Position numbers and translations under genes: made by a program. Shown one piece after another: positions 905-61,126 of a stretch of 64,000 nt of DNA. The notes under the pieces are model-generated. The model was not told the DNA's origin. It did no database searches and was given only the letters and a program-made list of their open reading frames with translations. Source of the DNA: Octopus sinensis (Eukaryota); contig NC_042997.1 of NCBI RefSeq assembly GCF_006345805.1, forward strand, positions 203,794,001 through 203,858,000, read 5' to 3'. Each line of letters opens with the position of its first letter. Positions within the stretch are counted from its first letter, which is position 1.

Positions 905-939
905 GTTTCCGACGAAGAGCTCCGCTCGAAACGTTAAAC
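905..939 (+). ncRNA. minimal type I hammerhead-like fold, core variant CCGACGA
   Basis: GUUU-CCGACGA-A-GAGC(UCC)GCUC-GAAA-CGU-U-AAAC; second family copy on - strand at 60705-60739 (G12 mutated). Confidence 0.6.
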
Positions 940-1131
940 CCTCCTTCTTCCCTTCCTTCCTGAGCGTCCAATAATACTATATTTGCTCCACGTCCTCGCG
1001 TTGTTGTGTTTTCTCTTTGTGTTTTCATGTTTGTATTAACTATATATATATATATATATACCGGAGTAAACACATAAATGTGAAACAAGGTGGAAAAAAG
1101 AGTACTCAAATACCAGTGGTAGAGTAATATG

Positions 1132-1289
1132 CTTTATTTAAAGCAGCAGAAAATTCAACAAAATCTGTTACTCTGAGTTTCTCGTTGCCGTTCATCAGAC
1201 AGTTTTTGCTAGCAAAAACTGTCTGATGAACGGCAACGAGAAACTCAGAGTAACAGATTTTGTTGAATTTTCTGCTGGTTTAAATAAAG
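1132..1289. repeat. near-perfect palindrome (79-bp arms, no loop) within (TA)n
   Basis: centre GCT|AGC at 1210/1211; one mismatch seen. Confidence 0.95.
1215..1260 (+). ncRNA. type I hammerhead ribozyme motif (mirror copy on - strand in the left arm of the palindrome)
   Basis: CUGU-CUGAUGA-ACG(GCAA)CGA-GAAA-CUCAGAGU-A-ACAG; stem III ACUC/GAGU. Confidence 0.7.
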
Positions 1290-1316
1290 TATATATATAT
1301 ATATATATATATATAG

Positions 1317-1366
<50 letters not shown>

Positions 1367-1812
1367 AATATCTTATAAGCAAGGGCTAAAGAAGGTTATT
1401 CTAAAGCCAATATACTGATAATCCACGTTTAATCTACTTGCTACAGAAAGTTGAACTGAAATTCGGGCAACTAAACCTTTGGAACCCTTAAATTTCGTTA
1501 TCTCAATATTGAATCAATTTCGGAATCAACCACATATATATGTATGTACATATGCACATATAGATACAGGGCGTCATAAAGCGTAAACAACAGGATATAT
1601 GAAATACAGAGTAAAAGTCAACATGTCCACTGACATGAAAACCGATAGGTCAAATATTTTGACAACAAGCGATGCGTGACATCGGTGTATGAGATTAACG
1701 GTCAAAAACTTGTAGCAGGAAAGTCTTCATCCAGTCTATAAGAAACAACACAAATGCTAAGTATATTCATTTCTTGAAAATGAAACTGTAAAAGTTTGTA
1801 AACGTCGAATAT

Positions 1813-2330
1813 GAGTTCGATGAAGAGCGATTGAATCAACGTTTTCACGAAAACCCACGTCAAATGGCCAGAGAATTGGCGGAACAGACAGATTGTGATA
1901 AAAAAAAAACTGTGGTGAAGCACCTTCCTTCAGTGGGCAAGGTTCATCGAACTCAGTTGGCCAACCGGTCTGTGATCTGTCCTTGAGATCAAAATTCCTA
2001 TTTTTGAAGCACGAAACCCAACTGCAGGCGGTACTTCAAGGCATTGCTCCTATTCCGTACACAGCACAACTCTCACGAGCAGCTTCGGCGGGCTCAACAC
2101 CGTGATTAAATGCAAAAGGCAAATAGTGTCGAAAATGCTTAGTTTTGTCTACTTCACTTTCCATTCTAATGATCTGAAAATACACAAAAATCAGTAAAAT
2201 TAAAAAAGCAAAAAAAAAAAAAAAATCCCCTTTCATACATCATAAAACATTTTGCCAATGCGTTTTATTTCTGCGTGCATTTTTAAATTTGAAGTAAACG
2301 CTCATGAATTATTCCTCAACCCATATTTTG
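1813..2330. mobile_element. mariner transposase relic with an internal inversion
   Basis: - strand MESEVDKTKHFRHYLPFAFNHG..AARESCAVYG..FDLKD..GWPTEFDE; continuation EFDEERLNQ..NPRQMARELAE..HLPSVGKV on + strand 1813-1944. Confidence 0.75.
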
Positions 2331-3156
2331 AACTAGTCGGATGCACTGCGATTTCCATGTAGTGTTCGAAAGTTTAGCTTGTTATTTTCTTTATGATACA
2401 GTTGAAACATTATCGCCAGGAGCTTCCATTTACCTTCTTGCAACGTTCAGAAAGTCGGCAATTTTTAAATCTTTGCGTTCCGCGCGTATGGCAACAATGA
2501 ATGTCTTTTCGTTTGTTATGTTAGCATTTTATTTGCCATGGGGTATCCGAAAGAAATTGAATCCTTTCAATTGGTTTGAAGAGAGTAATATACTGATAAT
2601 TAAGTGCCTTCAGAAGCACCCCAAAGACTTTGTATAGACACACAAACACTCACACATACACACACATTATACATACACAAACATAAATACACTGACACAT
2701 GTATTTTTGCGTGCATGTGTAAACGATAGACACACATACATACATACACACGCACACACATTATACATATACAGATACACGCATGTATTTTTGTGTGCGA
2801 GTGTAAAAGACACACACATACACATACACACACGGTTATAATCCATCCCTCATAAATACGTGTGATTGACATGACCAGATAAAGGGCGAAGTGGTCCAAC
2901 CAACCAAACAGCAACCCAAATGACGCCCATCCTTATGTTAACCTAGAAGCAGCCGAAAAAAATTTTCTTAGTTGCTTGTAGGTCATCACTTTCCTCAGAA
3001 GAATCTGCGTACATTGTTGAACACCCATGTACATGAGGTTGTACACACACACACACACACCACATGTATATGTGTATATATATGTATGTGTAGATATATG
3101 TATGTATGTATATACATATGTGCGTGTATGTATGTGTATGTGTGTGCATATATATA

Positions 3157-3207
<51 letters not shown>

Positions 3208-4249
3208 CATATATATATATATACGTATGTCTTTTTCCTTAAAACCTGTTTAAATTATATGTATGTATATACATATTTATCTTTCTATATATATATATGT
3301 ATGTATATGTATTTATATGTATGTATATGCGTGTGTGTGTGCGTGTTGACCATATAGACACAAATAACTATATATATATATATATATATATTTACATGTG
3401 TGTATATTTATTTGTATGTTTGAAGATATCTGTATGTGCGCGAGAGGGGCTAAATAAATTGGATAAGAAAGCAATTACAAATCCTGTCACGTGTTGTTCA
3501 AGTAGTTTTTCCTTTTTTAATTGGGCGGGAGTTTAATAATGACAGGAAATGTATTCTTGTGATCAGCACGAATACAAGTTGGTTGGAATCATACAAGTGC
3601 TTAGACGTCGCTGATATAACCAGAAAGCCATAGAATAACTTGGGCGGCTAAACTGCTGGCAGTGAAAAACCTTTGTCTTTAGAGAAATACCAGTTTGAAA
3701 TTTTTGGCACAGGGTCAGCAGTTTCAGGAAGGGAGCTAGAGGATTACATTGACTCCAGTACTCAGCTGGTACTTAATTCATCGATCCCCGAAAGGAGAAA
3801 AAGCAAATTCGACCTCGGGTCAATTTGAATGCAGAACGAAATGCTGTTAAGCATTTTGCTCGGCGTGCTTAACGGTTCTTCAGCATCGCCACCTTATCCT
3901 TAGAGATATATTGATTTCTAATATTTATTGAGTGGAGGCATATGGCCTAGTGGTTAGAGCAGCGGACTCGAGGGATAGCGGGTTCGAATCTCAGGCCGGG
4001 CGATGCGTGTGTTCATGAGCGAAACATCTAAGCTCCACGCGGCTCCGGCAGAAGGTAATGGCGAACTTCTGCTGACTCTTTTGCCACAACTTTCTCTCAC
4101 TCTTTCCTCCTGCATCTTGCAGTTCATCTGTGACGGACCGGCGTCCCATCCAGGTGGGGAACCTATACGCCGCGGAAATCAGGAAACCGGCTCTTATGAG
4201 CCAGGCATTGCTTGAGGAGGAACAAACAATATTTATTAAAAGGCCACAT

Positions 4250-6005
4250 TGTTATGTGTAGTTTGGGTTCTAATGGGATAGACAACCAATATGAAAGCCA
4301 TATGCTTATCAGTTCCTCTTTGTTTATGATTTGTGGTCGGTCTTTGATAGGCATATCACTGTCAATCCTGCTTGGAGCTGCTTTCACATCAGCACTGATT
4401 GATACAATATTTAGCTTTTTGCAGGTATGAGTTCAAGAATTGCTGGCCCTTCTGTTCTTGTGACATAAAAAGAACACTTGATTGTTTTTCCTTTGTGTGT
4501 CCCTGTGATTGTTGTTTTGCCCAGTTGTGGAATCCTGGTACCTCCGTACGCAGTGAGGATTACATCACTTGGTGTGAGGATTCCTTCTTTGATTTTATCC
4601 TCTTGTGTCATGTGTTCTGGGAACATCTTTTTGTAGAGGTTGACAGGCAAGATATCACTCTGGGCTCCAGTGTCAATCTTCAGCCTTAAGTCAATGTTTA
4701 TTCGTTTCTTGCCAGACTTCTTTTGTATTCTTATTGTTGTGTATGCCTCATTTGCTTTCTGGTCGTCATTTCCCATCTCATGCACATTTATTGTGCCGAC
4801 TGCCAAGAATTCATCCTCTGAGGTGTTTTGTTCTTGTTGTTGGGCATGTATATCCCTTCTTCTATTTCCGCTCCTCTTTGAAAATTGGGGCTTGTTTTTC
4901 TGGGATTTTGTTATCCTACACATTTTTCCCAGTGGTTGGGTTTTCCACTGTGCTTTGCAGTGTGCACCGAATGCAGGACATTTCTTCCGGTTGTCGAACT
5001 CATGCTCTGTACCACAGTACTGGCATGTTCTTTGTTTGCGGGTATGTTTCGTCCTGTGCCTAGATACAATATCTACACTGCTGCCGAGTGAGCTTGTTTG
5101 TAAGCTAAGTGAGGCCATTTGTTTGGTAGTGGCTTCGAATGCTCTTGCAGTGTCTACTGCTTCTATCAACTGGAGAGCGTCCTTACCTATGAAGGATTTC
5201 TGAACTTCCTTATGAGCACACCCCATATTAATTGATCAACGATTCTTTCGTCCTTATTTTTGAATTTGCATTTTTCGGCAACATTCTTTAGTCTGGACAG
5301 GGAATTGTCAATCGTTTCTTGTGGGTCTTGTTTCAGGCCCTGGAATTCGTATCTGTGAATTCTATGGTTCGATCTGGGCTCTAGGTGCCTTTCAAATTTC
5401 TCTAAAAGTGTGTCTGGGTTATTGCAATCCGATTCTGACATATTCCGGCTATTGAATAGGTCTAGACCTTTATTGCCCGTCCATAATAGGATATAGCTTA
5501 CCTTCTCATCGTCGGTTGTGCCTTTCAGGAAACTTTTGAAAGCTAGTTGAGTTTTCTGTTTGAATTTCTTAAATGCTTCTACGACACCACGGAATCCCAG
5601 TTCATGATCGGATGTAGATTCATCTGTACGGCGACGGGGGTCGCCATCTTGGATCGTCGTGTATGTGCGTGTCCGAAGACGAAGCGATGTTTTGTTTGTT
5701 AAATTCCTGGTTCGTTGTGTTTCTGTTTTGTTGTAAAGGCAGTTTCCGATTAATTATTTACCGCTGCCACCATGTTATGTGTAATTTGGGTTCCAATGGG
5801 ATAGACAACCAATATGAAAGCCATTGTTATTGTTTTACGTGTTTATTAACTATTCATGTTACACGGACTTGTCAACATTCAGCGTAGTAATACATTTTAT
5901 ACTTTACACACAGTTTGTACTGTTCACTAACAAAATAGTGCCAAAAGTGGGGATGTATTCTATACAAGTGTGCCAACGTATACACACAGATATGAATGTG
6001 TAACA
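4250..6005 (-). mobile_element. Gypsy (Mag-like) LTR retrotransposon, internally deleted
   Basis: 5' LTR 5773-6005 (TGTTA..TAACA), PBS TGGTGGCAGCGG at 5761-5772, frameshifted gag with CxxC..H..C knuckle, protease KIDTGAQSDILP, 52-bp 3' LTR remnant 4250-4301, TSD CACAT at 4245-4249 and 6006-6010. Confidence 0.9.
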
Positions 6006-6884
6006 CACATATTTGGGGTGAGGACAGCCGATGAAATCGGCCCAGTACGTGACTATGAGGGCGCATTGCTTTGTGGTCAGGGTATTGACTCACGATCGCA
6101 AGCTCGCGGTTTCGATTCCCCGACCGGGTGGTGTGTTTTGTTCTTGAGCAAAACATCTCATTTCACGTTCTTCCACCTCACTCAGCCATAAACAAGTAAC
6201 CCCCGTGACAAACTGGCCTCTTGTTCAGGGGGAATGTTATGATCTCGGTCACTTACACATCGTGGAAACTGGGCAATCGGCCCTGAGCCCTAGGACTCGA
6301 GTCACTAATATCTATGCGACGATGGTGATGATGGTGGTGGTGGTGGTGGTGGTGATGATGATGATGAGGATGATGATGATGATGATGATGACGACGACGA
6401 CGACGTTGTACTTGGCTCGTACTTTATTTATTTCACCGACTCCGTAATTTTGAGGGAAGGAGATTTATTCGAATACAATGACCCCAGCCTTAGATTGGTT
6501 CTTCATTTCATCGACCCTGGAAGGATTTGACTTGGCAGGATTTGAACTCACAACGTAAAGAGTCAAAAGGAATACTGCATGGCAGTTTGCTACACGTTCT
6601 AACGATTCCAATCCACTGCTATGTCGACCCCATAATAATGACGTGATTTGAACTCAGATACATTCTTTTAAAGTATCTAGAACAAACATAGTTATTCGTG
6701 AAAGCGGAAGTGAAGGAGTGAACGGGGAAATAGCCGTGAAAATGTATTTGGTTATGACACCGGAGAACTCCTGTAATTTGCAAAGACCTGTTTCGAAGTA
6801 GTTTTGTTTCGATTGTAGCGTGAATCCGGTTTAGATTCGAATCATAGTTCTCAGATTCTTCCTGTCTAGAATTATGACATAATA

Positions 6885-7280
6885 TACAGGGTGTTTCAAA
6901 AGTCTATGTCACATTCTACGAATGTTCTCTTTGCTGGACACAAACACCCCTCTTCCTTAAATTTTGCAATACCAATTTAAAATGGAACGTCTGTCTGGTG
7001 CCTGCTTGGTAAACATTGTACGAAATTTGCGTTGAACACGTGTCCGTGGATACGATTTTAGCGTATTCTAGCGACTTTTTTTGTTTTGTGAATGGCATTA
7101 CTGGATTTGAAAAGAGACAAGGAACAAAATTCAATTAAACTAATTAAGTTAAAATTAAATTAACAGAACGAAACTTGATACTTTTCGCTTTTAAATGTTA
7201 CCAGTTCAATCATGCTACCGTTTGTAGTTCATGATATAAGAGTTCTTAGAATGTGATATAGACTTTTGAAACACCCTGTT
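6885..7280. mobile_element. Tc1/mariner-type MITE
   Basis: TIRs TACAGGGTGTTTCAAAAGTCTATGTCACATTCTA / TAGAATGTGATATAGACTTTTGAAACACCCTG. Confidence 0.85.
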
Positions 7281-7959
7281 TTTCCATAAAAGAAAAAAAA
7301 GATTTACCTTAAAAGTTATTAACGCTCATACGAATCAGAGGCGTAGACAGGCCCTAAAGTTAGTGGGGGCGAGCACGTTAAACAAAAGGCAATTTTAAAC
7401 TCATTTCTCTTATATTACACAAAATATTTCATTAGTTATAATCGGAGTCGGTTGCTGGCGCCCCGGGCGAGCTGAACTTCGGCGTGTAGAAGCTGACAGT
7501 CGTGGAAATGTTCTTGTCTTTGTCAAGCCCTCCTTGGGGCCCCGTAGCACATGGCGCCCCGGGTGACTACCCGTGTTGCTGATACCTTGAGCCGGCCCTG
7601 GTTATAATATAGGTAACTGTATTCTACATTCAATAATTTCATGTTTCATTATGTATGAAACTTACAACTGCTGATATAGATGTAACATGAAGCTACACGG
7701 GATCGTTGAGTGTTGAAAGGTTATGACGTCAGGGTTTGTTTTGGATCTACAGATGTCGGCACCCACCAACATATCACAGTTCAAAAACCACGGGAGGCTG
7801 ATGAAATAAAGTAATGACTCCAGAAAGTTCTTCCAAGGTCATGGGAGTAACGAAAACAAAAATCTACCTTTATCGCACAAATTAACTAGAGGCGCCAATT
7901 TCGAAAAATATGCTCAAGGAAATGGGTCACTCCCCTTGTTTCCCAATTAGCTACGCCAA

Positions 7960-8002
<43 letters not shown>

Positions 8003-8765
8003 CTGATTCAATCAGCATTGGACAGTCTTATTCACAAACCTGAACTAGTTGTGTCAATCACCAAATATTCATCATATTAATTCATAATGCTCTGTACCAC
8101 ATTCACAATATTAATTCATTGGACGTGTAGCTGTAAACTAAGTATGGCAGGTAAACAATATATTCCTTTCTGTTATAGACACAAGGCCTGAAACTTTGGG
8201 GGCTGAGAGTAGTCAATTACATCGATCCAAGTGCTCAACTGGTAATTATTCTATCGACCCCGAAATGATTAAAGGCAAAGTCGACCTCGGTGGAATGACG
8301 GGACAAAAGGGCGCCAAGCATTTTAGTCGGCGCGCAAAAGATTCTGACAGTTCGCTACTTTAGGTAAATAATATATTGAGAAACTCAAATTTTTGTGCGG
8401 ATAGTTTCAAAACACACTACCTACGAGACAATGAGAACAGCTAAAGAAAATAAAACTACTAACCGCACTAAACTATCAACATTTCTTTGAAAAAAAAAAA
8501 AAAGAAAAAAGAAAAGCTACCGTTGTTTCGTTTTGTAGACCCTTTGTACTCTGCATACAATAAAAGTGGGAAATTTTATAAAATGAGATTCAGTAATAGA
8601 CGAACGTCTAGGATTACCAAAGCCGCAAGTGCCTATGTTATACGTAAACTACAGAATTCACAAATGCTCATATATAGTTTCCACGACTGAGGACAGCGAA
8701 ATTTAATACCAATTGAATTTCAGTGTCATTTTGTAGAAATACTACAAATAAAATATCTAAAACTG

Positions 8766-9400
8766 AGGCGGCGAGCTGCCAGAAATGTTAGCATACCGGA
8801 CAAAATGCTTAGTAGCTTTTCTTCCGGTTTTTCGTTCTGAGTTCAAATTTCAGGTCATCTTTGCCTTTCATCTCTCGGGGCCAATAAAGTAAATACCCGT
8901 CAAGCATTGGAATCAATGTGGTCGATTTCCCCTACTTCCCACAAATTTCAGGTTTTGTACCTAAAGTAGAAAGGATTACTTCTAGAATCCGGTTAAAGCC
9001 AAGGAGTTATTTTAAAAGTTATTTATTGTCAAAAGCTATTTCAAAGCCAAGCTAATATTGCAAGGATAATGATAATAATAACAATTTAGATATATTCAAA
9101 AATTAGAGTCACTCAAGAATATCATATTTATAAATTTAGTTGGCATTGACTTCGAAAGGATGAAAGGTAAAGTCGACCTCGGCGGAATTTGAACTCACAA
9201 CGTAACTTTGCGCTATTTTGTCTGCCGTTACGTTGTGAGTTCAAATTCCGCCGAGGTCGACTTTACTTTTCATCCTTTCGGGGTCGATAAATTAAGGACC
9301 AGTTTCGCACTGGGGTCAATATAATCGACTTAATACCTTTGTCTGTCCTTGTTTGTCCGCTCTATGTTTAGCCCCTTGTGGGTAATAAAGAAATAGGCAC
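8766..9400 (+). mobile_element. SINE family B copies (central motif CTTTCATCCTTTCGGGGTCGATAAATTAAGTACCAG)
   Basis: further copies near 3690-3895(-), 6440-6610(-), 8170-8360(-), 17000-17225(+), 19650-19840(-), 19985-20120(-), 23415-23660(-), 34065-34290(+). Confidence 0.8.
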
Positions 9401-9820
9401 TGGCAACAACACACGCATGAATGGTGCTTATTGCGTGCCACCAACATGGGAGCCAGTCAGGCGGCAATGGCATCGGCTACCAGTGCCGCCTGACTGGCTC
9501 CACATGCTGGTGACGTAAAAACCATCATCCGAATGTGGTCGATGCCAGTCCCGGCTGACTGGCTCCATGTGCCGGTGACACGTAAAAATCACCATCCGAA
9601 CGTGGCCAATGCCAGTTCCGCCTGACTGGCTCCCATGCTGGGGGCACATAAAAAGCATCCACTACATTCTCGGAGTGGTGGCGTTAGGAAGGGCATCTCA
9701 CTGTAGAAACACTGCCGGATCAGATTGAGCCTGGTGCAGCCGCTGGATCTCCAGACCTCAGTCAAACCGTCCAACCCATGCCAGCATGGAAAGCGGACAT
9801 TAAACAATGATGATGATGAT
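9395..9820 (+). mobile_element. RTE-LINE 3'-end-derived repeat with (GAT)n tail
   Basis: GGTTGGCGTTAGGAAGGGCATCCAG...CCAACCCATGCTAGCATGGAAAACGGACGTTAAACGATGAT family; copies near 21190-21670, 22280-22635, 38045-38650(-), 39170-39400, 52330-52715, 53910-54125(-), 57085-57310(-), 58015-58160(-). Confidence 0.8.
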
Positions 9821-10343
9821 ATACATATGCATACATACTCTCTCTTTCTCTCTCTCCCCCCTCTCTCTCACACACACAGACTCACACACGCACACATGCT
9901 TAAAAGCTTAGTCGTCACTCGTGATCGAATGAGATCTGAGAGTCTGTAGCACACTTTTGCTAGATGTTTAAGGCGCCTGTGTAGTCACGAACAGACAGTG
10001 GAGCACCGTGCATGTCACAAGCTAGAAGGAGAGAGAAAGGGACGCACCATCTCAAGACTGCAACTTATTTACAGAAGTGTAGACCGTCGGTGTATATGTA
10101 TTTGCTTGTATGTGCTTGTGTGTATGTGTCTCTCCACACTCACACACACACACATGCACACAACACACACACACACATGCACACAACACACACATGTGAG
10201 TGTGTCGTGTGTTGCAAGTCAAGGCGCTGCGGCCTAGGGATTAAGGTATTGGGTCGGGATCCTATGGTCATGGGTTCAATTCTCGAACCAAGCATGTGTT
10301 GTATACTTGAACAGGGCAATTCATATCGTGCACGCATACACAT

Positions 10344-10745
10344 AGGAGTGGCTGTGTGGTAAGTAGCTTGCTTACCAACCACATGGTTCCGGGTTCAGCC
10401 CCACTGCGTGGCATCTTGGGCAAGTGTATTCTGCTATAGCCTCCGGCCGACCAAAGCCTTGTGAGTGGATTCGGTAGACGGAAACTGAAAGAAGCCCGTC
10501 GTATATATCTATATATATGTTTATATGTATGTGTGTGTATATGTTTGTGTGTCTATGTTTGTTCCCCCAACATTGCTTGACAACCGATGCTGGTGTGTTT
10601 ACGTCCCCGTAACTTAGCGGTTCAGTAAAAGAGACCAATCGAATAAGTACTAGGCTTACAAAGAATAAGTCCTGGGGTCGATTTGCTCGACTAAAGACGG
10701 TACTCCCGCATGGCCACAGTCAAATGACTGAAACAAGTAAAAGAG
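10344..10745 (+). mobile_element. tRNA-derived SINE family A
   Basis: head GGAGTGGCTGTGTGGTAAG..GGTTCAGTCCC, internal microsatellite, tail GACTGAAACAAGTAAAAGAG; copies 14617-14990(+), 16426-16818(-), 17600-17735(+), 21731-22133(+), 41410-41745(-), 44530-44970(-), 55195-55610(-), 59702-60070(-). Confidence 0.88.
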
Positions 10746-11342
10746 TATATACTTATACGAACAATAATAAATTCAGTGATAATAAACTAATTACAATGCT
10801 AGGATAAATTACAATGTTAAGTATAACTGCATACCCATATCCAAATACAAGGTTAATTAATTTTAGATAGTGCGGGTCAGTAGCAAAGACTGTCTGAGAA
10901 GCAGCTATACTGGTTTTATAACGCCTCTAACGATTGGTCGCTTGTCATACGAGAAGTAACGACCACATCTCGCTCAAATTATATCCCATCCTTAAGAAAG
11001 AAAGAATATAATTTGTAGCCTCATTTGATCTGTTTTCTTCCCAATTAGGAGGCTTTTGTAAACACAAACAAAATACATCGAGCGAGGAATGAACACAGTC
11101 ATGTATCAGCTCAGACACTATTGACAGTCGGAGGATAGGAACGACCGAATCTGCTCCTAATCTAAAAGTACCATCTTTCTCCTCTACGCACAGTCACATA
11201 AGTTGTTCAACTAAATCACTAAGATGAAAACAACATTTTCTTATAGAATCAGGCAATAAAATTAATCTCATTTTCCGACGTTATTCTATTAATATATTTT
11301 CTTGGAACAGTCATGTTCCATTTCCGCCCTTTATCAATAAAA

Positions 11343-11749
11343 CTAGCAGCATAGCCCGGCGTTGCCCGGGTATGTAAGAGCCCCTAGTAGGCAACGACTA
11401 ATCCCAATCTAGTTCTTTCTCTCTAGGGAATGAAGGCGCATGTGTAGGTTGCAATGTATTCTCTTCACTCGAATACTTCTATGTATACGATGTTCCTAGC
11501 TGTCTCCCGACAGAAAATGTTTTGCATATAAAAAGCTTAGATTCTCGACCCCATGTCGAATTTATCGATTTTTTCAGAACTGGGGAAACTTTTCGAAATT
11601 TTCGCTGCGCTAGTTTTGAATTATGACATTGGGCTATGTGTGTGTCAAGTTTCATCAGAATCGGTTGAAAGCCGTGGTCAGTGTGAAGGTACAACCTGAC
11701 AGCCACACAGACACACAGACAGACAAACTGCCGTTTATATATATAGAGA
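11343..11749 (-). mobile_element. non-autonomous Helitron
   Basis: - strand 5'-TC start, subterminal hairpin CCCGGGCAACGCCGGG, CTAG-3' end, A|T insertion site. Confidence 0.8.
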
Positions 11750-12176
11750 TAGAGGTTGAACGACAGACTGCTCTCATTATTTATTTTTCCTCTTTCATTA
11801 TTGTTGCATTAATCTTAATTAATACAATATTCCTAGATAAAATTAAGTCTGGAAAATAAGTACAATAAGCCAGAATACAATCAGTTTGTGAGTGGAAGAG
11901 GTTGTGACGGTTGAAGTTTATTTTGTAAACAATAATATGGAACGTTGGAGTCGTAATAAGTTTGTAAGGGTTAGTTCTTCGCTGATTGCCATTATGCAAA
12001 GATGAAAGAACAGTGAATGAAGTTGTGAAGAAAATATTTATTTACCGTTACATTGTAAAATACCTTTCCTCGACGGGCAGGTGATAAAATCGCAAATCAT
12101 TCAAAGTAAAGATAGATGTCGTAGATTTTCCCTGTATAGTTTGTGTGTTCTCGTTATTGTGTAGTAGTAATTGCAG

Positions 12177-12560
12177 ATGGAAGCACTCCGTCGGTTACGA
12201 CGACGAGGGTTCCGGTTGATCCGATCAACGGAACAGCCTGCTCGTGAAATTAACGTGTAAGTGGCTGAGCACTCCACAGACACGTGTACCCTTAACGTAG
12301 TTCTCGGGGATATTCAGCGTGACACAGAGAGTGACAAGACCGGCCCTTTGAAATACAGGTACAACAGAAACAGGAAGTAAGAGTGAGAGAAAGTTGTGGT
12401 GAAAGAGTACAGCAGGGATCACCACTATCCCCTGCCGGAGCCTCGTGGAGCTTTTAGGTGTTTTTGCTCAATAAACACTCACAACGCCCGGTCTGGGAAT
12501 CGAAACCACGATCCTACGACCGCGAGTCCGCTGCCCTAACCACTGGGCCATTGCGCCTCC
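12177..12560 (-). mobile_element. tRNA-derived SINE family C, full length
   Basis: A/B-box head GGAGGCGCAATGGCCCAGTGGTTAGG..GGTTTCGATTCCC; flanking direct repeat AGTAATTGCAGAT. Confidence 0.88.
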
Positions 12561-48085: not shown

Positions 48086-48295
48086 GTGTATGTGTATATG
48101 TAGGTGTATGTGTGTATGTATATATTTATATTTATATATATGTGTGTGTATATATGTATATATGTGTGTGTGTGTATATATATATATATTATATATATAT
48201 ATATATGTATGTATGTGTGTATGTGTATATGTAGGTGTATGTGTGTATGTATATATTTATGTTTATATATATATGTGTGTATATATGTATATGTA

Positions 48296-48328
<33 letters not shown>

Positions 48329-48498
48329 CTATGTGTGTAAGTTTATTATATGTATGTATCCGTCTATATAATAGGTAACTGCACGTACATATACTTAATA
48401 TTTATTTTTTGAGTATGCATGTATGTATAACTGCGTGTATATATATTTACTATTTACTTATTTTTTGAGTATGCATGTTAGTATGAATATATATATGT

Positions 48499-48541
<43 letters not shown>

Positions 48542-48664
48542 GTATATATATGTACATGTATGTATTTGTATGTAGGTGTACATGTATGTGTGTGTATTTA
48601 TATTTATTTGTGTATATGTATAGACTAGCCTTCTAAGAGTGTAGACAGGAATCTGTAGGTACGC

Positions 48665-48709
<45 letters not shown>

Positions 48710-50005: not shown

Positions 50006-50077
<72 letters not shown>

Positions 50078-50247
50078 GTATATAATATATATATATATAT
50101 ATATGAATAAGTATATATATATATATATATATATAATATGAATAAGTAATATATATATATATATATATATATGAATAAGTATATATATTATATATATATA
50201 TATATATATGAATAAGTTATATAATATATATATATATTATATATAAG

Positions 50248-50326
<79 letters not shown>

Positions 50327-50351
50327 TATATATATATAATCTTATCTAATA

Positions 50352-50394
<43 letters not shown>

Positions 50395-50570
50395 GTATAT
50401 ATATATATAATATATAATAAATAAGTAATATAATATATTATATATATAATAAGTAATATATATATATATATTATTATATATAAATAAGTAATATATATAT
50501 ATATATATAAATAAGATATATATATATATATATATAAATAAGTATATATATATATATATATATAAATAAG

Positions 50571-50603
<33 letters not shown>

Positions 50604-50735
50604 TTTATATATATATATATATATATATAATAAGTATATATATAATATATTATATATATATTATATAATATATATATATATATAATAATAAGTATATATA
50701 TATAATAAGTTTGGAGAACGGACGTTAAACGAATG

Positions 50736-50820
<85 letters not shown>

Positions 50821-51015
50821 GTATATATAATAAATAAGTTTGGAGAACGGACGTTAAACGAATGATATATATATATATTATATATATTATATATATAAAT
50901 AAGTATATATATATATTATATATATATATATAAATAAGTAATATATATAATAAGTATATATATATAATAAGTTTGGAGAACGGACGTTAAACGAATGATA
51001 TATATATATATATAT

Positions 51016-51050
<35 letters not shown>

Positions 51051-51145
51051 ATAAGTTTGGAGAACGGACGTTAAACGAATGATATATATATATATATATA
51101 ATATATATATATAAATAAGTTTGGAGAACGGACGTTAAACGAATG

Positions 51146-51204
<59 letters not shown>

Positions 51205-51229
51205 GTTTGGAGAACGGACGTTAAACGAA

Positions 51230-51273
<44 letters not shown>

Positions 51274-51321
51274 AAATAAATATATATATAAATAATTTGG
51301 AGAACGGACGTTAAACGAATG

Positions 51322-51353
<32 letters not shown>

Positions 51354-54300
51354 GTATATATATAAATAAGTTTGGAGAACGGACGTTAAACGAATGATAT
51401 ATATATATATATATATATATCTTTATACACACACATACCTATATGTATATATATTTGAATGACATGTTTCACTGGACATTTAAGACAGTAAGACAAACAA
51501 CAATTAACCTCTTGCATCATATTTCTTCTGAAATACGCTGTCTTTTGTTTCAATTAAACTTGAAAATAATGAAGAATTTAGTAAGACATCTATGCCATAA
51601 ATTGTTATTTGGAATAAAAATTAACTTGAAATTTTCATGGAGGGGTTTAATCTAGATCCCTTTAAAGCAGGAAGTTTGTATCATAGACTTGGAACCGTCT
51701 TGGGTGGGTTAGTATCTAAAAAGGTAACAATTAATATTTCAGTCCATTATCAAGGACATAGTTAATTCACTACAGTGCAGCTTCTCTGAAATGCCAGTGG
51801 TAGCATTCTGAAGAACAGTACAACTTTATTAAAAGCTTTAAAATAGAAAACAAATAACTAAATAATATTCCATATTAACTATTTTTTTTGTTTGTATTTA
51901 AATTTCATAATGAATTTCAGTGCTTACAAAATATTTTGTCTTTGAGTAGGGTCAAATTCATTTTGGTCCGAATGCAAACATGACTCAATCAGGTGTTCCA
52001 GTGAAGAATGGAATTGTTCACTTAATCGAAGGTTTACTCTTTCCTGATGATTTGGAAACTCTGGTGCCCCATAACTGTGATAATGTAACCTTCAAAGCTG
52101 TTCATGTAAGTATTAAAGATTTTGGAATAATATTGCTATATTATTATTTTTCGTGGATGCAGGCTTAGCTGGGTGGAGGTGCTTGTCTCCCCCTTGTAAA
52201 CATAAGGACACAGAAAATGTGTCAAGGCCGACAGGAAGCGTTGATGCTTCGTAGGGCTAAATAGTGGTGGTGTGATTCCTTTCATGGGACTGTCACATTA
52301 AGATGACACTACTGCTTATATCTCCCTGAGGATCAGAATCGAAATCGATCAATGGAAATTGCAGATGTGTTACCAGTGCCGGTGGCATTTAAGAGAACCT
52401 TCCGTTTCGCGACCGTTGCCAGCACCGCCCCGTTTCGTGTCTGTTGTCAGCCTCGCCTGGCCCTCGTGCTGGTGGCACATAAAAAGCACCATCCGTTCGT
52501 GGCCGTTTGCCAGCTCTGTCTGGCACCTGTGCGGGTGGCACGTAAAAAGCACCCACTACACTCACGGAGTGGTTGGCGTTAGGAAGGGCATCCAGCCGTA
52601 GAAACACTGCCAGATTTGACTGGGCCTGATGAAGCCTTCTGGCTTCACAGACCCCAGTAGAACCGTCCAACCCATGCTAGCATGGAAAACAGACGCTAAA
52701 CGATGATGATGATGATATTTAGAAATGTAATATTTCTATTATTGTTATATTATTTTATAAAAAACATTGCAGAGACTTAGAGGGAAAATACAGAAAACAT
52801 TCTCAACAATTTAAAGTATTAGACACAAACTTAAAGAGATTTCATAATAAAAAGAAGTGTCAAGTGTTAGTGTTTGTATTTGAACCTAAACAGGTGCTGC
52901 ATTGAACCAAACTGGGGTAATTTCGTTTTATCATATTGTTGTAGAACAATATGATAATATAACTTCTGTAAATGGTATCTTGTAAAACTGGGAAGGAACA
53001 ATGCATAACTTTTCTCATGTTTCTAATATATTTACAGTTGAACACATCAAAACCAATCAATGTAAGGTTTAGTTATAATGTTCCTCATCAGAATATACAT
53101 CTGGTGGTACCAGGACAGATTTGCTTTCATTGCTTTGATGATTTCTTGGACTCAAAGTTAAAGGGTAGAATCTTACAATCACTTGTATTTTCAATACAAT
53201 TCCTAAATTTTCCTGGTCTAAATTCATCCCATGACATCCTCTAAACTTTGAATGTGATGTCCTTTGTTTCAGGAGTCAGTGATCTAAATATGCAATGAAA
53301 TTACTTGAACTCAAACTTAGCTAATTCACACATTGGGATGGTCATGGATGGAATGTCTTTAATCATAGGTCTTCTCAACCAAGGTGGTATTGAGATTAAC
53401 TGACAACCTAATAATGAGTAGTCTCAGTAATACAATGAATTATATCAGAATCTATTCAGTTTTAAAACGGTAAAAGTTGGTATCTCAAAGAGAAAGTTGT
53501 TTTGCCTTAGTCTTCTGAGAAAGAACAGCTACTGCTGGGCCTTCTTAACTGTGGCATCAGTGTTGCAGAACATTAGATTAGGAAACAGTCACAAGGAAAA
53601 ATATAAATCTGTGGTGACTTTTCATTTCTTTGGTGTTAACTTCAATAGAAAACATCTAAATATTTTGAGTTGTTATAAATATGATAAAAGAATGTTGGGT
53701 TGTTGTCCTTGCATTAATTCATAAATGTCTGCAATGCCTTACTGCAAACTGACTTGACATTCTCAGCATCTAAACATAGAATGTGATTTCCTTTGCTACT
53801 TTATGTTATTGATGGATTTGGGGAATAAAAAAGGAATAAATAGAATTCAGAATATGATGTTCATTAAATATTAGTGGGGTGTTTCAGTGCTGAGATTAAT
53901 AAAGGAGAACCATCATCATCATCATTTAACATCTGTTTTCCATGCTGGCATAGTTTGGACGGTTTGATAGAGGACTGGCAAGCCAGGAGGCTGCACCAGG
54001 CTCCAATCTGATTGGGCAATGTTTCTACAGCTGGATGCCCTTCCTAACGTCAACCACTCTGAGAGTGTAGTGGGTGCTTTTTACATGCCACTGGCACAGG
54101 AGCCAGTCAGGCAGCACTGGCATCGACACAGAAATACATACATACATACATTTATATATAAATACAACAAGCTTCTTTCAGTTTCCATCTATGAAATCCA
54201 CTCACAAGGCTTTGGCCAGCCAAGGCTATAATAGAAGACCCTTGCCCAAGGTGCTATACAGTGGGACGGAAACCAGAATCATGTGGTTGGGAAACAAGCT

Positions 54301-57300
54301 TCTTACCATGAATGACATTGTTGGGTAGGTATGAGAGGCTGGATCTGGTCAGTTTTAACGTAATACAGGGAGAATATTTGGGTCCGACATGGCTGGATTA
54401 AATTCTAAAGGGTCAAAGGTATTAAATGAAATAAAATTTTAAACTTAATGTTTTTATTTCCTCCAATAATCTCAAAGCAAAATTTTATATTGCAGGGAGA
54501 ATGTGGTCTGTGTGAGAGTGATCTCCATTGTTTGCAGCCTTCTGATATACCAACAGTAAGTAGTGTTTCTGTTTTGATCAGGGTTAGTGTTGTAAATATC
54601 TCAAATGAATCATGAAGTTTGAAGTAAAATGTCTACTGTAATCATTTATACATTATTTACATTATTTACATTTGATGGATATTTGTCCTCATCTTATTTG
54701 TTGTTAACACAACGTTTCAGCTGATATACCCTCCAGCCTTCATCAGGTGTCTTGGGGGAAATTTCAAACCTGGGTTCTCATTCCTAAGGTATTTTTCGAT
54801 GTTATTATTATTATTATTATTATTATTTAGGTCACTGCCTGGAATCAAACTTGGAATCTTGGGGTTAGTAGCCTGTGCTCTTAACATCGAAAAATACCTT
54901 AGGAATGAGAACCCAGGTTCGAAATTTCCCCCAAGACACCTGATGAAGGCTGGGGGGTATATCAGCCGAAACATTGTGTTAACAACAAATATGATGAGGA
55001 CAAATATCTGTCAAATGTAAATAATGTAAATAATGAACATAATTCCTCATCTCTTAAATATAGGACTGTAATCATTTATAACAATATAAAGAGATTAAAG
55101 GAGATGCCTCGTTGGCAAATTTGGATTACTGTCATCTGCTTCTTTAATAATATCCGTGGGGATGGTCGGATAATATATCTGTTATCTTTTATTATTTTAC
55201 TTGTTTTAGTCATTAGACTGTGGCCAAGCTGGGGCACCACCTTGAAGAACTTTTAGCTGAATGATTTGATCCTACTACTTTTTTTTTTTTGAAGCCTGGT
55301 ACATAATCTATTGATCTCTTTTGATAAACTGCTAAGTAATGGGGACATAAACAAACCAACACCTGTTGTCAAGTGGTGTTAAGAGACAAAGGCAGACACA
55401 AAAGTACAAAGGCACACACACACACACACACACACACCACACACACATGACGAGCTTTTTTCAGTTTCTGCCTACCAAATTCACTCACAAGGCGTTGGTT
55501 GGCCTAAGACTATAGCAGAAGACACTTGCCCGAGGTGCTATGCAGTGGGACTGAACCTGGAACCATGTGGTTGGGAAGCAAACTTCTTACCATGCAGTCA
55601 TGCCTGCATCTAGTTTATGGATGTAGTGTCATTTTTCAGGGGCCAACTTGAAATGTATTTTAACCTTTGTGATCCCATATTTCGGCTGAATTACTCTGAC
55701 TTTTCCTTTGAATTAATTTTGAAAACAATGAAGAATTTAGTAAAATAATTATGTCATTATTAACCCTTTTGACCCCAACCTGGCTGAAACCGGCTCTGGC
55801 TCTGTAGTACATATGTCTTATTTTCAAAAGTCTTGAATTAAAATCTTCCACCAAACCTTAGTCACAATTTATGTTCCTAACACTAGCTGAATGATAACTA
55901 AGTTATTTTACTGAATTCTTTGTTATATTTAATGTAATTGAAAGAAACACAGAGCATTTCAACATAAATGCAGTAACGAAAGGGTTAAGCTGGTGTTTGA
56001 AACATAACCATGAAATTCTTTAGAAGATTTTAATTTAGGGAGATGTACTTGCATAGCAAATGACCTGATCTAAGTTCATGTGCTGGAACGAAAACGATTA
56101 CAGCATGGAAGGTGTTTATAAGGCATTTAAGAAACACACAAAAACCGTTAGATTCACATCAACATTTAAATTTAATTTGCCAAAATATTTTCATCACTTT
56201 GAGACCACAACCTGTTCACTGACAAAATTCTGTGCTGCATCTGAGAAAGTAACAGTTAGTTCATGATTTAACAGTTACTAACTGTTACTTTCTCAGATGC
56301 AGCACAGAATTTTGTCAGTGAACAGGTTGTGGTCTCAAAGCGACGAAAATATTTTGGCAAATTAATTTTAAATGTTGAAGTGAATCTAACGGTTTTTGTG
56401 TGTTTCTTAAGTAGCTTATAAACACCTTCCATGCTGCAATTGTTTATTTTGATTTAGATCACATTAAAACCAGGAATTTGTATCATAGAGCCAAAGACAA
56501 CTTCAGACAGATTGGTATCAAAAGGGTTAAACACGAAATATATTTTTAATTCCTTATTCTTTTCTCAGGATAAAATATATAAAAACTGCACCTACCAAAT
56601 AAACCTGAAATACACTTATTCTAGGCGGAAAGGTTGTCAACGAATTTGTCGTCGAAAAGTAATTGTAAGTACATTCTATTCTTTCTTTCTCAACTCTAAG
56701 CACAGACATTAGATATAAAATACACTATTCCATTCTATGAGACAAAGAACTTGTCCTTCAGTTAACATGCCATATATCATTTCTCTTACTGTTTCTTCCT
56801 TTTCCTCCCTTTGTCATAAAATTGGTCTCAAAGTTTTAAAATGGAGATTATGCATGTGTAACTCTTCAAAATAGGGGGTAAAGAAAATGTGGCTGTTTAC
56901 TAATTTTAATATAATTTTCTGATGGATCCTTCATAGCGTTTGGTACTTTTGGTGCTATCTATGGCAAATATTTTGGAGTTTTATATATATATAGGATTAT
57001 ATTATTGTAATAAATATTGGTGTGTATAGAGGAGTGTATGCACATGCATGTGCATGCACACATACACACACACACACAAGCATATATCATCATCATCATC
57101 ATCATCATCTTTTAGCATCTGCTTTCCATGCTGGCATGGGTTGGACGGTTTGACTGAGGACTGGCAAGCCAGGAGGCTGTATTAGGCTCCGATCTGTTCT
57201 GACAAGGTTTCTACAGCTGGATGCCCTTCCTAATGCCAACCACTACGAGAGTGTAGTGGCGGCTTTTTACGTGCCACCAGCATGGGAGCTAGTCAGGTGG

Positions 57301-60300
57301 CACTGGCATATATATGTATACATTTGATGGGATTTGAACTTAGAAACTTAGCTCTTTTTGAACATAGCTCTTTTGGCTTTCTGCACTAATACTTTTCTAC
57401 AGCTTTGTTAACAACAACAACATTTTCATCTAGTTCCCCACTCACCCTCTTCCCCCTGCTCCTCCCCCTTCTCCTCCCCTCCTCCACCTTTTCATCATCT
57501 TCGTGAACAACATCAACAACAATTATTTACTCAAACCATGATTTCTCTCTTTCAGGATCGTCAGTGTTGCCAGGGCTTTTTTGGTCCTAACTGTGAACCT
57601 TGCCCAGGAGGCTTAAACAACCCTTGCTACGGACGTGGCACGGTAAATTAAACCAATTACACACAATATTCATTATTTCTCTGCCATTACCTTATATATT
57701 TATATGTTTATATGGATTTTCAGCAAGGAAAGAGTTAACCCATGGCCCATAGCCTAATCGGAAAGTTAAGTCTGAATCTTTTATCTTTTACTTGTTTCAG
57801 TCATTGAGCTGTGGCCAAGCTGGGGCAACATCTTGAAGAATTTTTAGTTGAATAAATCAACCCCAGTACTTGCTTTTTTGTTTAAGCTTCATGCTTATTC
57901 TATCAATCTCTTTTGCTGAACTGCTAAATTTTGGGGACATAAACACACCAACACCGGGGACATACACAAACACAAAAACACACACATAGAAATATATATA
58001 TATATATATATATATCATCATCATCATCATCGTTTAACGTCCGTTTTCCGCGCTAGCACGGGTTGGACAGTTCGACCGGGGTCTGGGGAGCCAGGGGCTG
58101 CTCCAGGCTCCAGTCTGATCTGGCAGTGTTTCTACAGCTGGATGCCCTTCCTAATGCCAACTATATATATATATATAAGACAAAGTATGGAAACAAGTCC
58201 ATGTAGATAACAATTTGGTCTAAATTTGGTTCTAATCACACATAGTATTAATTCCAGTTAAAATACTTAATGTAAGTCCCAAGAAAAAACAAGGTAGACA
58301 ATGGAAACAGACAACAAATGTTCAAGTCAGGCAAACATCTCATGTCATATACATTATTATTATTGGAAAAAATTCAAAGTCTTACAGCTGTTTCTGGGAT
58401 TTCCCAGAGTATGGGATATTCCATCATCAGAGACAAATAGGGAGAATGAAAAGAGTATAGATTAATGAAATGACGACATAGAGGACAGGAGTAAAAGAAT
58501 AAGGAGATGAAGAAAGAGAAGGTACCAAGGTACCATGCAGTGGGATTGAACCCAGAACCATGTGGTTGGGAAGCAAACTTATTTCTACACAGCCTGTTCT
58601 TGTGTATTGAACCTTTTTATTAGTTGAGGAAAATTACTAAAACCATGAGCAAATGTGTAAATTTGTTCTGGACTATATGTGTGAGTATGTATTTATGGGA
58701 TTATGTGTATGTTTGTGGGTGTATGTGTATGTGTGTAAGTATATGTTTATGTATGTGTGTATGTGAAAGTGTATGTCTGTGTGCATGTTTATTTGTGTGT
58801 TTGTAAACATGTGTATGTATATACATGCGTGTGTATATATGTCGAAGTTTATAGGTATATCTCAGTGCATGTGAGAGTGTATGTGTATGTACATATGTGT
58901 GTGTGTGTATGTGTGTGTGTGTGTGAATGTGTGTGTGTTTAGATGTGTGTGTGTCTACAAGTGTGTTTCTGCAACTATATTGAGAGTTGTATTGAAAATC
59001 TCATTGAAGACATATGGTCTCCCATGCTTGTGAACGCAGTGTATATGCATATATTTGTATATGTGCCCATGTATATACACATACATACTCATGTATATGT
59101 ATGTACACGAGTGTATGTTTGGTGTATGAATTCATTTATGTGTGTGAGTGTACACGTGTGGGTGTATGCATATAAATATGCAGGTATGTTTGTGTGTGTG
59201 GGTATATGGGTTCTTTTAATACATATTTTTTACAAAAATGCTAAATCTGTTTAGAGAATTACATAAATAATTGCAAAAAATCCCATTATGAATGTATGCG
59301 TCACTACTGAAATTATTGTGAGGCAGAAATTCCTGAAGTCCATTTACGAGAGATTTCTTATCTAGTTTTAGATTTATTCTATTTTAATCCCTCCACTTTA
59401 TGTAAAAATGACTGAATTCCTCATTCAGCTCATGGCTGAGATTTTCATTAACTGATTCCCAGGTGGTTCTTTCAGCAAGGAATGTCAAAAACATAAATAA
59501 ATATCTAAATTACCAAATCATTTTATGTTGCAAAAAAAAAAAAAAAACATACATTTTTCATTATTTACATTATTTACGTTTGATGAAAATTTCGAACCCG
59601 GGTTTGAAATTTCCATAGGACACCTGAAGAAGGCTGGAGAGTACATCAGCCGAAATGTTATGTTAACAACAAACAAGATGAGGACAAATATCCATCAAAT
59701 ACTCTTTTATTTGTTTCAGTCATTTGACTGCGGCCATGCTGGGGCACTGCCTTCAGTCGAGCAAATTGACCCCAGGCCTTATTCTATCGGTCTCTTTTGC
59801 CGAGCCGCTAAGTTACGAGGACATAAACACACCAGCATCGGTTGTCAAGTGATGTTGGGGGGAACAGACACACAAACATACACATACACATAAATATACA
59901 TATATACTATAGGCTTCTTTCAGTTTCTATCTACCAAATCCACTCACAAGGCTTTGGTTGGCCCAAGGCTATAGTAGAAGACACTTGCCCAAGGTGTCAC
60001 GCAGTGGGACTGAACCTGGAACCATGTGGTTGATAAGTAAGCTACTTACCACACAGCCACTCCTGCACCTATATGTAAATAATGTAAATAATTCCTCATC
60101 TCTTGAATATAGAACTGAACATAAATTTTTAATTTATTCTTTAGAAGAGGAAGGAAACCTGCTTGTGTGTGTATGTAAGTATGTGTGTGTACAAGTGCGT
60201 GGGTGTGTGTGTGTGTGTGTGTGCATGTGTATTTTATTCTTTATCTTTTACAGGTTTCAACCATTAGACTGTGGCCATGCTGTAGCAGTGCTCTGAAGAA

Positions 60301-60474
60301 TTTTTTGTTGATCAAACTGACCCCAGTACTTATTTTCTCTCTTCTCTTTTAAGCTTGGGAATTATTCTCTCAGCCTCTTTGGCTAAACCACTCATTTAGA
60401 GGAACATAAACACACCAGCACCTGTTGTCAAAGAGGTGGGGTGAGGCACAAATGCAGACTGAAAGGCGCACACT

Positions 60475-60506
<32 letters not shown>

Positions 60507-61126
60507 GATATAGATATATATTTATATGCAGTTAAGTATATGTCTGGTCTTAACTGCATATAAATACATTACTGCTCTATTCTTTAGAGTCTGCTTATAT
60601 ATATATATAGTTAATCCAAACAAGAAAACACAGAAAAAAACAGCAACGCGAGGACGTGGAACAATTAAAGTATTATTTGACGCTCAGGAAAGAAGGGAAG
60701 GAGGGTTTAACGTTTTGAGCGGAGCTCTTCGTCGGAAACAAGGAGAAGGAAAGATCCCGAGAAGGGAAGACAGAGGAAAAAAATATTTTTGCTGGTGGTG
60801 CTCAAGAGATCACATGTTGAAAATATATATATATATATATTGATAAAAATGGTAAGACAACAAAAGAAAGAAAGAGACCTCGATGTTATGTCAATAGAAG
60901 AATTTATCTGTAAATGCAATACGTGACAATTATTCTATAGCCATGATAAAACTCCGAGATTCGGATGGTGAGGTGGAAATCCACGCTGCCATCTCTTCAC
61001 TTATATGGCCATTGGAAAATCCGATGGCCGGATAACTGAAGAGATGGCAGCGTGGATTTCCCCCTCGGCATCCGAAACTTGGAGTTTTATCATGGCTACC
61101 GAATAATTGTCACATATTACTTTTAC

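Follow-up and report, generated by a model that had tools for sequence, protein, structure and literature searches.

Hammerhead motifs, probably of Penelope-like elements, in introns of an octopus stabilin-2-like gene include a high-copy family with a G3-C8 core pair

Minimal type I hammerhead ribozymes of Penelope-like elements (PLEs) are the closest described relatives of the motifs analysed here, and the accessible text of the report by Cervera and de la Pena (2014, PMC4209133) describes several features that recur in octopus: a short stem I, a palindromic stem III, an extra base between A9 and 10.1, a U3-A8 variant, and many unrelated families per genome, mostly as single truncated copies and with opposite-strand pairs. 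The green anole PLE Poseidon (Frangieh et al. 2024, PMC11167929) is similar, in the part of that study available, in having a hammerhead, AT-rich targets, cutting and extension on both strands, and a tail explained by two reverse transcription (RT) starts. An engineered C3G/G8C double mutant of Poseidon reportedly regained cleavage in part, and hammerhead mutants did not impair insertion in vitro. Neptune/Nematis-type EN+ PLEs, according to the available sections of Craig et al. (2021, PMC8557442), share with the octopus elements a C-terminal GIY-YIG domain after a CX2-5CxxC linker, (TA)n targets, 5' truncation, an inverted 5' copy and a tail at one end, which measures 30-40 nt there as against about 60-70 nt in octopus. 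Natural core variants, including a compensatory U3-A8 pair and a position-6 change (A6C), were reported by Perreault et al. (2011, PMC3088659); the accessible text makes no mention that we found of G3-C8 or A6U, and the variants there are mostly single copies from microbes or phages. Non-LTR retrozymes (PMC7229834; bioRxiv 10.64898/2026.07.22.740005), as far as the available portions describe them, likewise place type I hammerheads in animal repeats akin to PLE ends and attain very high copy numbers, with as many as 120,000 in axolotl; they are tandem repeats with mostly canonical ribozymes, whereas the octopus motifs lie in dispersed or inverted PLE 3' fragments.

The window, by which we mean the whole 64,000-nt stretch of Octopus sinensis DNA analysed (NC_042997.1, positions 203,794,001 to 203,858,000), lies entirely within a stabilin-2-like gene on the plus strand (1..64000), with 19 coding exons at 14066-63175. 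Since the first coding exon lies about 33 kb upstream of the window, all of its motifs are intronic; the loci at 905 and 1215, which a first-pass annotation of this DNA had placed in the upstream flank, both sit in intron 1. That annotation listed 12 loci, and a hammerhead-like motif was found at or adjoining every one of them. Its estimate of about nine families becomes ten (F1 to F10), because the loci at 45159, 54706 and 59619 belong to a single family.

F1 is represented by a plus-strand fragment with a (TA)n end (828..1040), whose hammerhead at 905-939 has a U4C core (N3 909, predicted cut 3' of 935), and by a second, decayed minus-strand copy with a mutated GAAA box (60644..60783, N3 60735) that the earlier list lacked. 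F2 forms a palindromic insertion between (TA)n runs (1061..1289, both strands), with a long tailed arm on the minus strand and a short arm on the plus strand; its motifs (N3 1198, minus; 1223, plus) have a weak stem II, which in the 1223 motif is just 2 bp, closed by A.A. F3 (27845..27887, plus; predicted cut 3' of 27882) has the canonical C3-G8 pair, and its stem I has a variable 1-nt bulge. F4 occurs as a decayed minus-strand copy whose stem I 5' strand was lost at an inversion junction (45128..45231, N3 45199), as a palindromic insertion (54651..55035, both strands) with an intact minus motif (N3 54746, predicted cut 54711) and a plus arm with decayed stem III (N3 54940), and as a decayed plus-strand copy in which the first pair of stem I is broken (59594..59700, N3 59624). 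The F5 hammerhead (46269..46313, plus; N3 46275) is an old decayed copy, and that of F6 (47254..47289, plus; N3 47258, predicted cut 3' of 47285) has an A6U core. In the F7 insertion (47692..49968, both strands), two identical 190-nt inverted arms flank 1.9 kb of simple repeats, and the motifs (N3 47751, minus; 49909, plus) combine a 4-bp stem III and an 8-nt loop with a weak stem II. The palindromic F8 insertion (56061..56445, both strands) has a tailed minus arm and a short plus arm. Its plus-strand G3-C8 hammerhead (56311..56361) comprises stem I (56311-17/56355-61), the core (56318-24), stem II (56326-30/56340-44) and a palindromic stem III (56348-53), with the predicted cut 3' of 56354; the mirror copy of this 56318 motif has its N3 at 56219 on the minus strand. 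F9 (58379..58434, minus, antisense to the host) has a canonical core and a long stem II. The palindromic F10 insertion (60908..61128, both strands) holds an intact plus motif (N3 61036, predicted cut 3' of 61086) and a decayed mirror motif (N3 61000).

The window motifs were confirmed as real, above-chance folds. A descriptor allowing an optional extra base after A9 found 6 canonical-core motifs, compared with 0.05 on average in 100 local dinucleotide shuffles; without that base only 2 canonical motifs were recovered and most motifs were missed. At a score of at least 10, a refined descriptor, adjusted after inspection of the window, returned 8 motifs versus 0.16 in 50 shuffles. The loose core pattern proposed in the first-pass annotation gave 4 matches against 1.8 +/- 1.2 in shuffles, which is not significant, so the signal is carried by the full fold; that pattern included the G3-C8 family but did not set it apart. 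What stands above chance is a three-way junction with the core N3-U4-G5-A6-N7-N8-A9, GAAA and UH, albeit in some window copies decayed. Two features not required by the descriptor were also enriched among 33 unbiased matches relative to 23 shuffled ones: a stem III loop no longer than 1 nt (26/33 versus 7/23), to which F7 with its longer loop is an exception, and the extra base after A9 (22/33 versus 9/23). Rfam hammerhead models were absent from the 150 matches listed of 212 for the window and from the 35 rows covering 54600-56500. Minimum-energy dimer folds did not recover a hammerhead dimer for most motifs, which is expected of the method and was counted neither way. The earlier reading of the motifs as minimal type I hammerheads of the PLE type with a palindromic stem III was upheld, and so was that of many high-copy families: about 32 motif clusters were found in the DNA examined, and random DNA contained about 38 motifs per Mb, or roughly 100,000 genome-wide. 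Coelacanth and Xenopus have 4,000-9,000 according to the accessible text of PMC4209133, a comparison made across different descriptors. F7 had 7 copies in the DNA examined, including the two in the window; a genome DNA search with F7 was uninformative, because it returned no match despite the presence of F7 in the window.

The minimal PLE hammerhead itself is known, and what is new is core variation fixed across whole families. C3, U4, A6 and G8 are kept in seven families, the exceptions being F8 (G3-C8), F6 (A6U) and F1 (U4C), and a Watson-Crick 3-8 pair is present in all ten. None of the three exceptional cores was found mentioned as a family-level core in the available text of PMC4209133. 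For F8, 6,148 exact genomic matches carried G3-C8 and none carried C3-G8, and aligned copies had G3-C8 in 56 of 61. This pair is a laboratory mutant in Poseidon, in the part of PMC11167929 available, and the natural state of octopus F8; we found no earlier report of a natural G3-C8 hammerhead in a literature whose key papers were incompletely covered. F3 (27849), a relative of F8 in the same genome, differs from it by four compensatory pair changes, in stem I, the core 3-8 pair, stem II and stem III, in an alignment of eight hand-picked rows that represent two lineages only. Related PLEs on metagenome contigs have C3-G8 or U3-A8. Within families, double-sided changes were rare and mostly at CpG sites, in pair counts that leave out F2. 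From sequence comparison, the G3-C8 swap in F8 suggests that selection keeps the predicted self-cutting shape.

F8 could be traced to a full-length parent, its motif following a PLE whose open frame runs to 1,042 codons, and a single ORF upstream of the motif encodes RT together with a GIY-YIG endonuclease at the C terminus. At locus L009 the GIY-YIG domain (PF01541, E 2.7e-5) lies about 0.9 kb upstream of the motif. When the protein read from L009 was used as the query, 19 of the 29 other loci had a G3-C8 motif downstream on the same strand, 0.8-1.4 kb away, one had G3-G8 and nine had no motif. This position behind the stop codon differs from that in Poseidon, where the hammerhead overlaps the ORF start (PMC11167929, available part). 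A Pfam search with the whole L276 PLE frame gave no match at E<=0.1. PLE fragments upstream of F8 in L010, L011, L012, L017 and L020 derive from other elements and were left out of the links. In a tree of 16 L276 relatives only, branches were long and core types did not cluster; the sole use made of it was the grouping of L276, L307, L309 and L313 (100/100). The two 3' ends seen in F8 are separated by about 60 nt, and the family is apparently a recently active one. The links for F3 and F6 are fragments: an ORF 33-46% identical to L276 lies upstream of F3 in L105, L406 and L408, and 4 of 43 F6 copies have a GIY-YIG-like ORF tail upstream in the same orientation. Another PLE fragment, upstream of F3 in L091, belongs to a different element and was not counted. 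The motifs of three of the ten families were thereby shown to be PLE 3' ends. No PLE ORF link was found for the other seven, for which the same origin is likely; PLE-like traits seen were 5' truncation, a (TA)n or microsatellite target, an optional tail and outward-facing inverted copies. Of 15 complete F2 palindromes, 14 had one long arm and one short arm, no more and no fewer. An element-encoded fixed palindrome was ruled out for F2, as the query spanned the junction and thereby biased the top matches, while copies elsewhere have other junctions; the centre they share is a naturally occurring CTAG immediately upstream.

We consider it probable that the motifs are hammerheads at the 3' ends of PLEs, left in introns as inert truncated cDNA copies and predicted to cut only in the element transcript. 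Following published PLE biochemistry, the RT-endonuclease would nick both strands of (TA)n-rich DNA, and reverse transcription would start downstream of the hammerhead from a pair of sites, one on each strand, which would yield head-to-head arms of which one has an extra tail. Because the hammerhead would lie just upstream of these starts, even very short insertions would carry it. The window motifs likely arrived in this way; they are probably inert inside the host intron, with cleavage expected only in transcripts of the element itself, either as dimers or aided by its protein. In active master elements, selection would hold the fold while cores vary and the 3-8 pair stays Watson-Crick (C-G, U-A or, in F8, G-C).

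Some evidence counts against this explanation. Families with A6U, U4C or a weak stem II multiplied despite expected lower activity, and the unimpaired insertion of hammerhead mutants in anole points the same way. It is conceivable, although we judge it rather unlikely, that the fold is maintained for a structural or protein-binding role as a signal to the PLE protein, cleavage being dispensable or having been lost in variant families. A6U occurs in 5 of the 33 unbiased matches, and A6 changes gave low activity in the accessible data of PMC3088659; stem II has only 2-3 bp in F2 and F7; and, in the available part of PMC11167929, insertion in vitro did not require cleavage, and RNA-seq reads ending at the cut site were absent. 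A structural signal fits poorly with the 3-8 pair, however, which makes a tertiary contact in the active conformation and takes three different Watson-Crick forms in related elements, one of which needs two transversions, as selection on the catalytic conformation would predict; H17 is also not G in the family norms. That the motifs arose as chance folds, or else as by-products of palindromic DNA elements such as MITE ends, is extremely improbable: many copies do lie within inverted repeats, and the loose core alone did not exceed shuffles, but the shuffle controls of the full fold, the unequal arms and varying junctions, the sense-oriented position downstream of RT/GIY-YIG ORFs and the four double-sided changes between F3 and F8 all contradict it.

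The first-pass annotation had also called the population retrozyme-like, which was not borne out. Non-LTR retrozymes, that is, tandem non-autonomous repeats of 150-450 nt spreading via circular RNA, are brought to mind by F1 copies, often about 210 nt long with similar 5' starts, and retrozymes are derived from PLE ends in the accessible part of bioRxiv 10.64898/2026.07.22.740005. Nevertheless, no motif is covered by a tandem array, same-strand pairs number just 1 among 33 matches in 820 kb, 5' ends of copies are variable and three families run into PLE ORFs, and we regard this origin as quite unlikely. Very unlikely, in turn, is that the gene accumulated sense motifs that cut or regulate its pre-mRNA. 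Ten motifs do lie on the host sense strand, as the annotation had said of at least ten; the motifs at 909 and 47258 share the same ACGT stem III, so that pairing is possible in principle; and the window has 8 descriptor matches in 64 kb against 2.6 expected, about threefold (Poisson P 0.005, or 0.016 counted as 7 independent insertions), with a descriptor tuned on this window and a window chosen for its motifs. Outside the window, however, the gene contains 4 matches in 91 kb, an average density, and as the 220 kb around it hold 8 motifs, the genome average, the stabilin-2-like gene is nothing special and the finding is ordinary for the host. Inverted repeats account for five of the ten sense motifs, each of which forms the second arm and comes after its own antisense arm (in the four that were folded, 0.91-1.0 was paired to the earlier-transcribed arm), two further ones are decayed and three are lone without a near partner. 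No tandem pair of intact same-family sense copies occurs in the window. An effect on host pre-mRNA, which the annotation had considered possible, is therefore unlikely.

The only reconstituted PLE could insert in vitro without needing cleavage. In the successful F8 family, two transversions have rebuilt a core pair, which provides natural evidence for a selected active-site geometry, and F3 (C3-G8) and F8 (G3-C8) form a matched pair for testing. Of the 33 unbiased motifs, 16 would escape descriptors in which C3/G8 and A6 are fixed, or 9 if U3-A8 is permitted, and ribozyme counts in animal genomes are therefore underestimates. It is plausible, if somewhat doubtful, that a PLE family of more than 6,000 copies with an unreported, cleaving G3-C8 core reveals an in vivo need for the ribozyme. 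If so, F8 together with the C3-G8 family related to it in this genome and with U3-A8 relatives elsewhere would indicate that a ribozyme able to cleave is required by PLEs in vivo, the motifs, numbering roughly 100,000 in at least 30 families, would constitute a natural library of tolerated cores (G3-C8, A6U, U4C), and standard searches would be overlooking such variants.

A hammerhead-like motif was found at every locus listed in the first-pass annotation, whose observation was confirmed as a whole. The loose core that it proposed gave 4 matches in the window, compared with 1.8 in shuffled sequence, not a significant difference. A descriptor without an extra base after A9 found only 2 motifs in the window; allowing that base yielded 6 canonical cores versus 0.05 in 100 local shuffles. 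A refined descriptor, devised once the window had been seen and admitting any Watson-Crick pair between core positions 3 and 8 (canonically C3-G8), recovered 8 motifs versus 0.16 in shuffles. About nine families had been proposed among 12 loci; our grouping gives ten (F1-F10). Genome searches were run with nine of these: eight gave 39 to 3,247 first-look candidates each, and the search with F7 (47692-49968) gave none, though the window itself holds F7. Genomic copies of F5 (46269) have the full 6-bp stem I that is lacking in the decayed window copy, and those of F3 (27845-27887) show a variable bulge in stem I.

Motif-bearing copies have variable 5' ends and a (TA)n 3' terminus, often with two alternative 3' ends, and an inverted copy is often present 5' of them, making the motifs face outward. 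As far as the available text of PMC8557442 goes, Penelope-like elements (PLEs) share all of these traits. In the palindromic family F2 (1061-1289), 15 of 19 loci are complete palindromes, 14 of the 15 with one long and one short arm, and this one-tail rule fits the two reverse transcriptase (RT) start sites and two-strand extension described in the accessible part of PMC11167929. The sequence upstream of the F8 motif (56311-56361) runs into a GIY-YIG endonuclease domain, and a search with the linked protein returned 5,952 candidates. At 29 other loci from this search, a G3-C8 motif lay 0.8-1.4 kb downstream in 19 and a G3-G8 motif in 1, with none in 9. Nine extended loci contained frames of 381-1,042 codons; four of these have a motif on either side, one in sense and one inverted. 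Pfam gave no match for the whole F8 element frame; some homologues are annotated as reverse transcriptase, and a few of these carry RT or GIY-YIG Pfam tags. A GIY-YIG-like tail precedes the F6 motif (47254-47289) in 4 of 43 copies, and at three loci an ORF sharing 33-46% identity with the F8 protein precedes the F3 motif. No PLE coding remnant was found in the window. The earlier attribution to PLEs is largely right; the ORF link is direct for three families (F8, F6 and F3). A second PLE type, nearly complete, turned up in a random 10-kb stretch (L218:2263-7970); a U3-A8 hammerhead lies on its downstream side and an inverted copy on its upstream side. A third PLE-like ORF (L188:3-2381; 615 codons, GLYRDD motif, inverted 5' copy) had no hammerhead by our descriptor.

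The F8 core reads G3-U4-G5-A6-A7-C8-A9 within a clean fold (stem I of 7 bp, stem II of 5 bp, palindromic stem III of 6 nt). We found G3-C8 in 56 of 61 F8 copies, 25 of the 61 having been picked via the protein and not the motif; two subfamilies differ in loop II and share the core. A 20-letter F8 pattern had 6,148 exact genomic matches, compared with 0 for the reversed control. With both core letters changed in the same context there were 23 matches, none reading C-G or U-A and four reading A-U; these A3-U8 copies (L356, L357, L358 and L360) may represent double transitions, or else a small subfamily that uses the fourth Watson-Crick pair. Four public runs, each labelled with a different organism (231, 470, 4,046 and 6,231 contigs aligned; two runs RNA by guess only), showed no alternative letter at ≥5% at positions 3 or 8 of F8. 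When four F3 and four F8 copies, hand-chosen among intact ones and representing two lineages, not eight, were aligned without guidance, the cores came into register. Both sides of a pair differ in the first pair of stem I, in the 3-8 pair, in one pair of stem II and in the centre of stem III, and 80 of 80 cells are paired. The descriptor was also applied to 48 metagenome loci related to the F8 protein; it found a downstream C3-G8 motif in three and U3-A8 in two, and inspection by eye added two of each. Within families, covariation was weak and mostly CpG decay, as expected from neutrally decaying copies. Elsewhere, F6 retains U at position 6 and takes all four letters at position 7, and F1 (905-939) has C at position 4. 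By eye, single copies of two F8 relatives showed other cores: L307, a close relative, has a C3-G8 hammerhead ~100-150 nt past the ORF end at 4883, with a reversed 15.1-16.1 pair (U-A) and palindromic stem III, and L309 an apparent U3-A8 with changed A9.

Sixty 10-kb stretches at round coordinates contained 25 motifs, compared with 2.0 on average across five shuffles, and extrapolation to the genome (2.72 Gb) gives ~104,000 motifs (64,000-158,000). The same 600 kb held 26 homology matches to the ten window families. In the genomic DNA examined, 112 distinct high-scoring motifs fell into 32 clusters, although chance may account for a few of these. The suggestion of a very diverse, high-copy population is supported, for motifs that are predicted ribozymes. 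An EGF-like exon of the window matches a 1,752-aa protein (source name stabilin-2, Octopus sinensis), and the stabilin-2-like protein maps to the window as 19 plus-strand exons. Because residues 1-111 are encoded ~33 kb upstream of the window and the last exon lies ~58 kb downstream, all window motifs are intronic; the proposed intronic setting stands and the upstream flank does not. The emphasis on this gene was likewise unwarranted, with 8 motifs in the surrounding 220 kb and 4 in the gene's other 91 kb. The threefold excess in the window (8 motifs versus 2.6 expected; P 0.005, or 0.016 counting seven insertions) belongs to a window chosen for its motifs and a descriptor tuned on it. Such clumps could arise from insertions piling into one another's (TA)n ends, as at 719-1370.

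Other repeats share the window. Immediately before the F1 insertion, short inverted arms stand tail to tail over a (TA)n run (719-830), probably 3' ends from a different repeat family with a common target; immediately after the F7 insertion lies ~1.4 kb of (TA)n broken by a repeated short unit (49959-51454). Gag/protease-like open frames in intron 1 (4411-5753, minus strand; by eye) are probably an LTR-retrotransposon remnant, Pfam giving no match for the frame tested. Also by eye, we noted LINE-like RT C-terminal fragments (32513-32980 and 61633-62226, minus strand; no Pfam match) and fragments of mariner-like transposase (43651-43956 and 62358-62971). A ~380-nt repeat, presumably SINE-like, occurs as two inverted copies, 92% identical and 0.9 kb apart (12176-12560 and 13501-13871), with only weak two-mismatch hammerhead matches.

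At least ten sense-strand motifs had been proposed as able to affect the host pre-mRNA. The count of ten is correct: five are second arms of inverted pairs, two have decayed, and the other three (909, 27849 and 47258) stand alone. In an outward-facing pair, the antisense arm would be transcribed first, whichever the strand. When four palindromes were folded, the motif was 0.91-1.0 paired to that arm; F7's 1.9-kb-spaced pair, among the five second arms, lies outside these four. With five second arms and two decayed motifs, the proposed effect is unlikely. According to the available portions of PMC4209133 and the review PMC6765202, minimal PLE hammerheads cleave poorly and as dimers. The anole PLE hammerhead requires PLE protein, and a C3G/G8C double mutant gave partial rescue, in the part of PMC11167929 available. 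The motifs would process the element's own tandem or read-through transcript, and genomic fragments carrying them would be passengers.

PMC4209133 describes minimal hammerheads by the thousand, belonging to many families in a genome, along with opposite-strand pairs and U3-A8; PMC7229834 gives a coral more than 6,000 motifs from 16 families and axolotl up to 120,000 retrozymes; and PMC3088659 lists the variants U3-A8 and A6C, each as far as its accessible text extends. In the literature searched, no title concerned a hammerhead in octopus or cephalopod. For G3-C8, the literature searched gave only engineered mutants (PMC3884650 and PMC11167929, available in part), and an earlier natural case may exist. 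The headline finding is a new, dense instance of an already known kind. What is new are the variant cores of these predicted ribozymes, chiefly that of the high-copy G3-C8 family, which has a C3-G8 relative.
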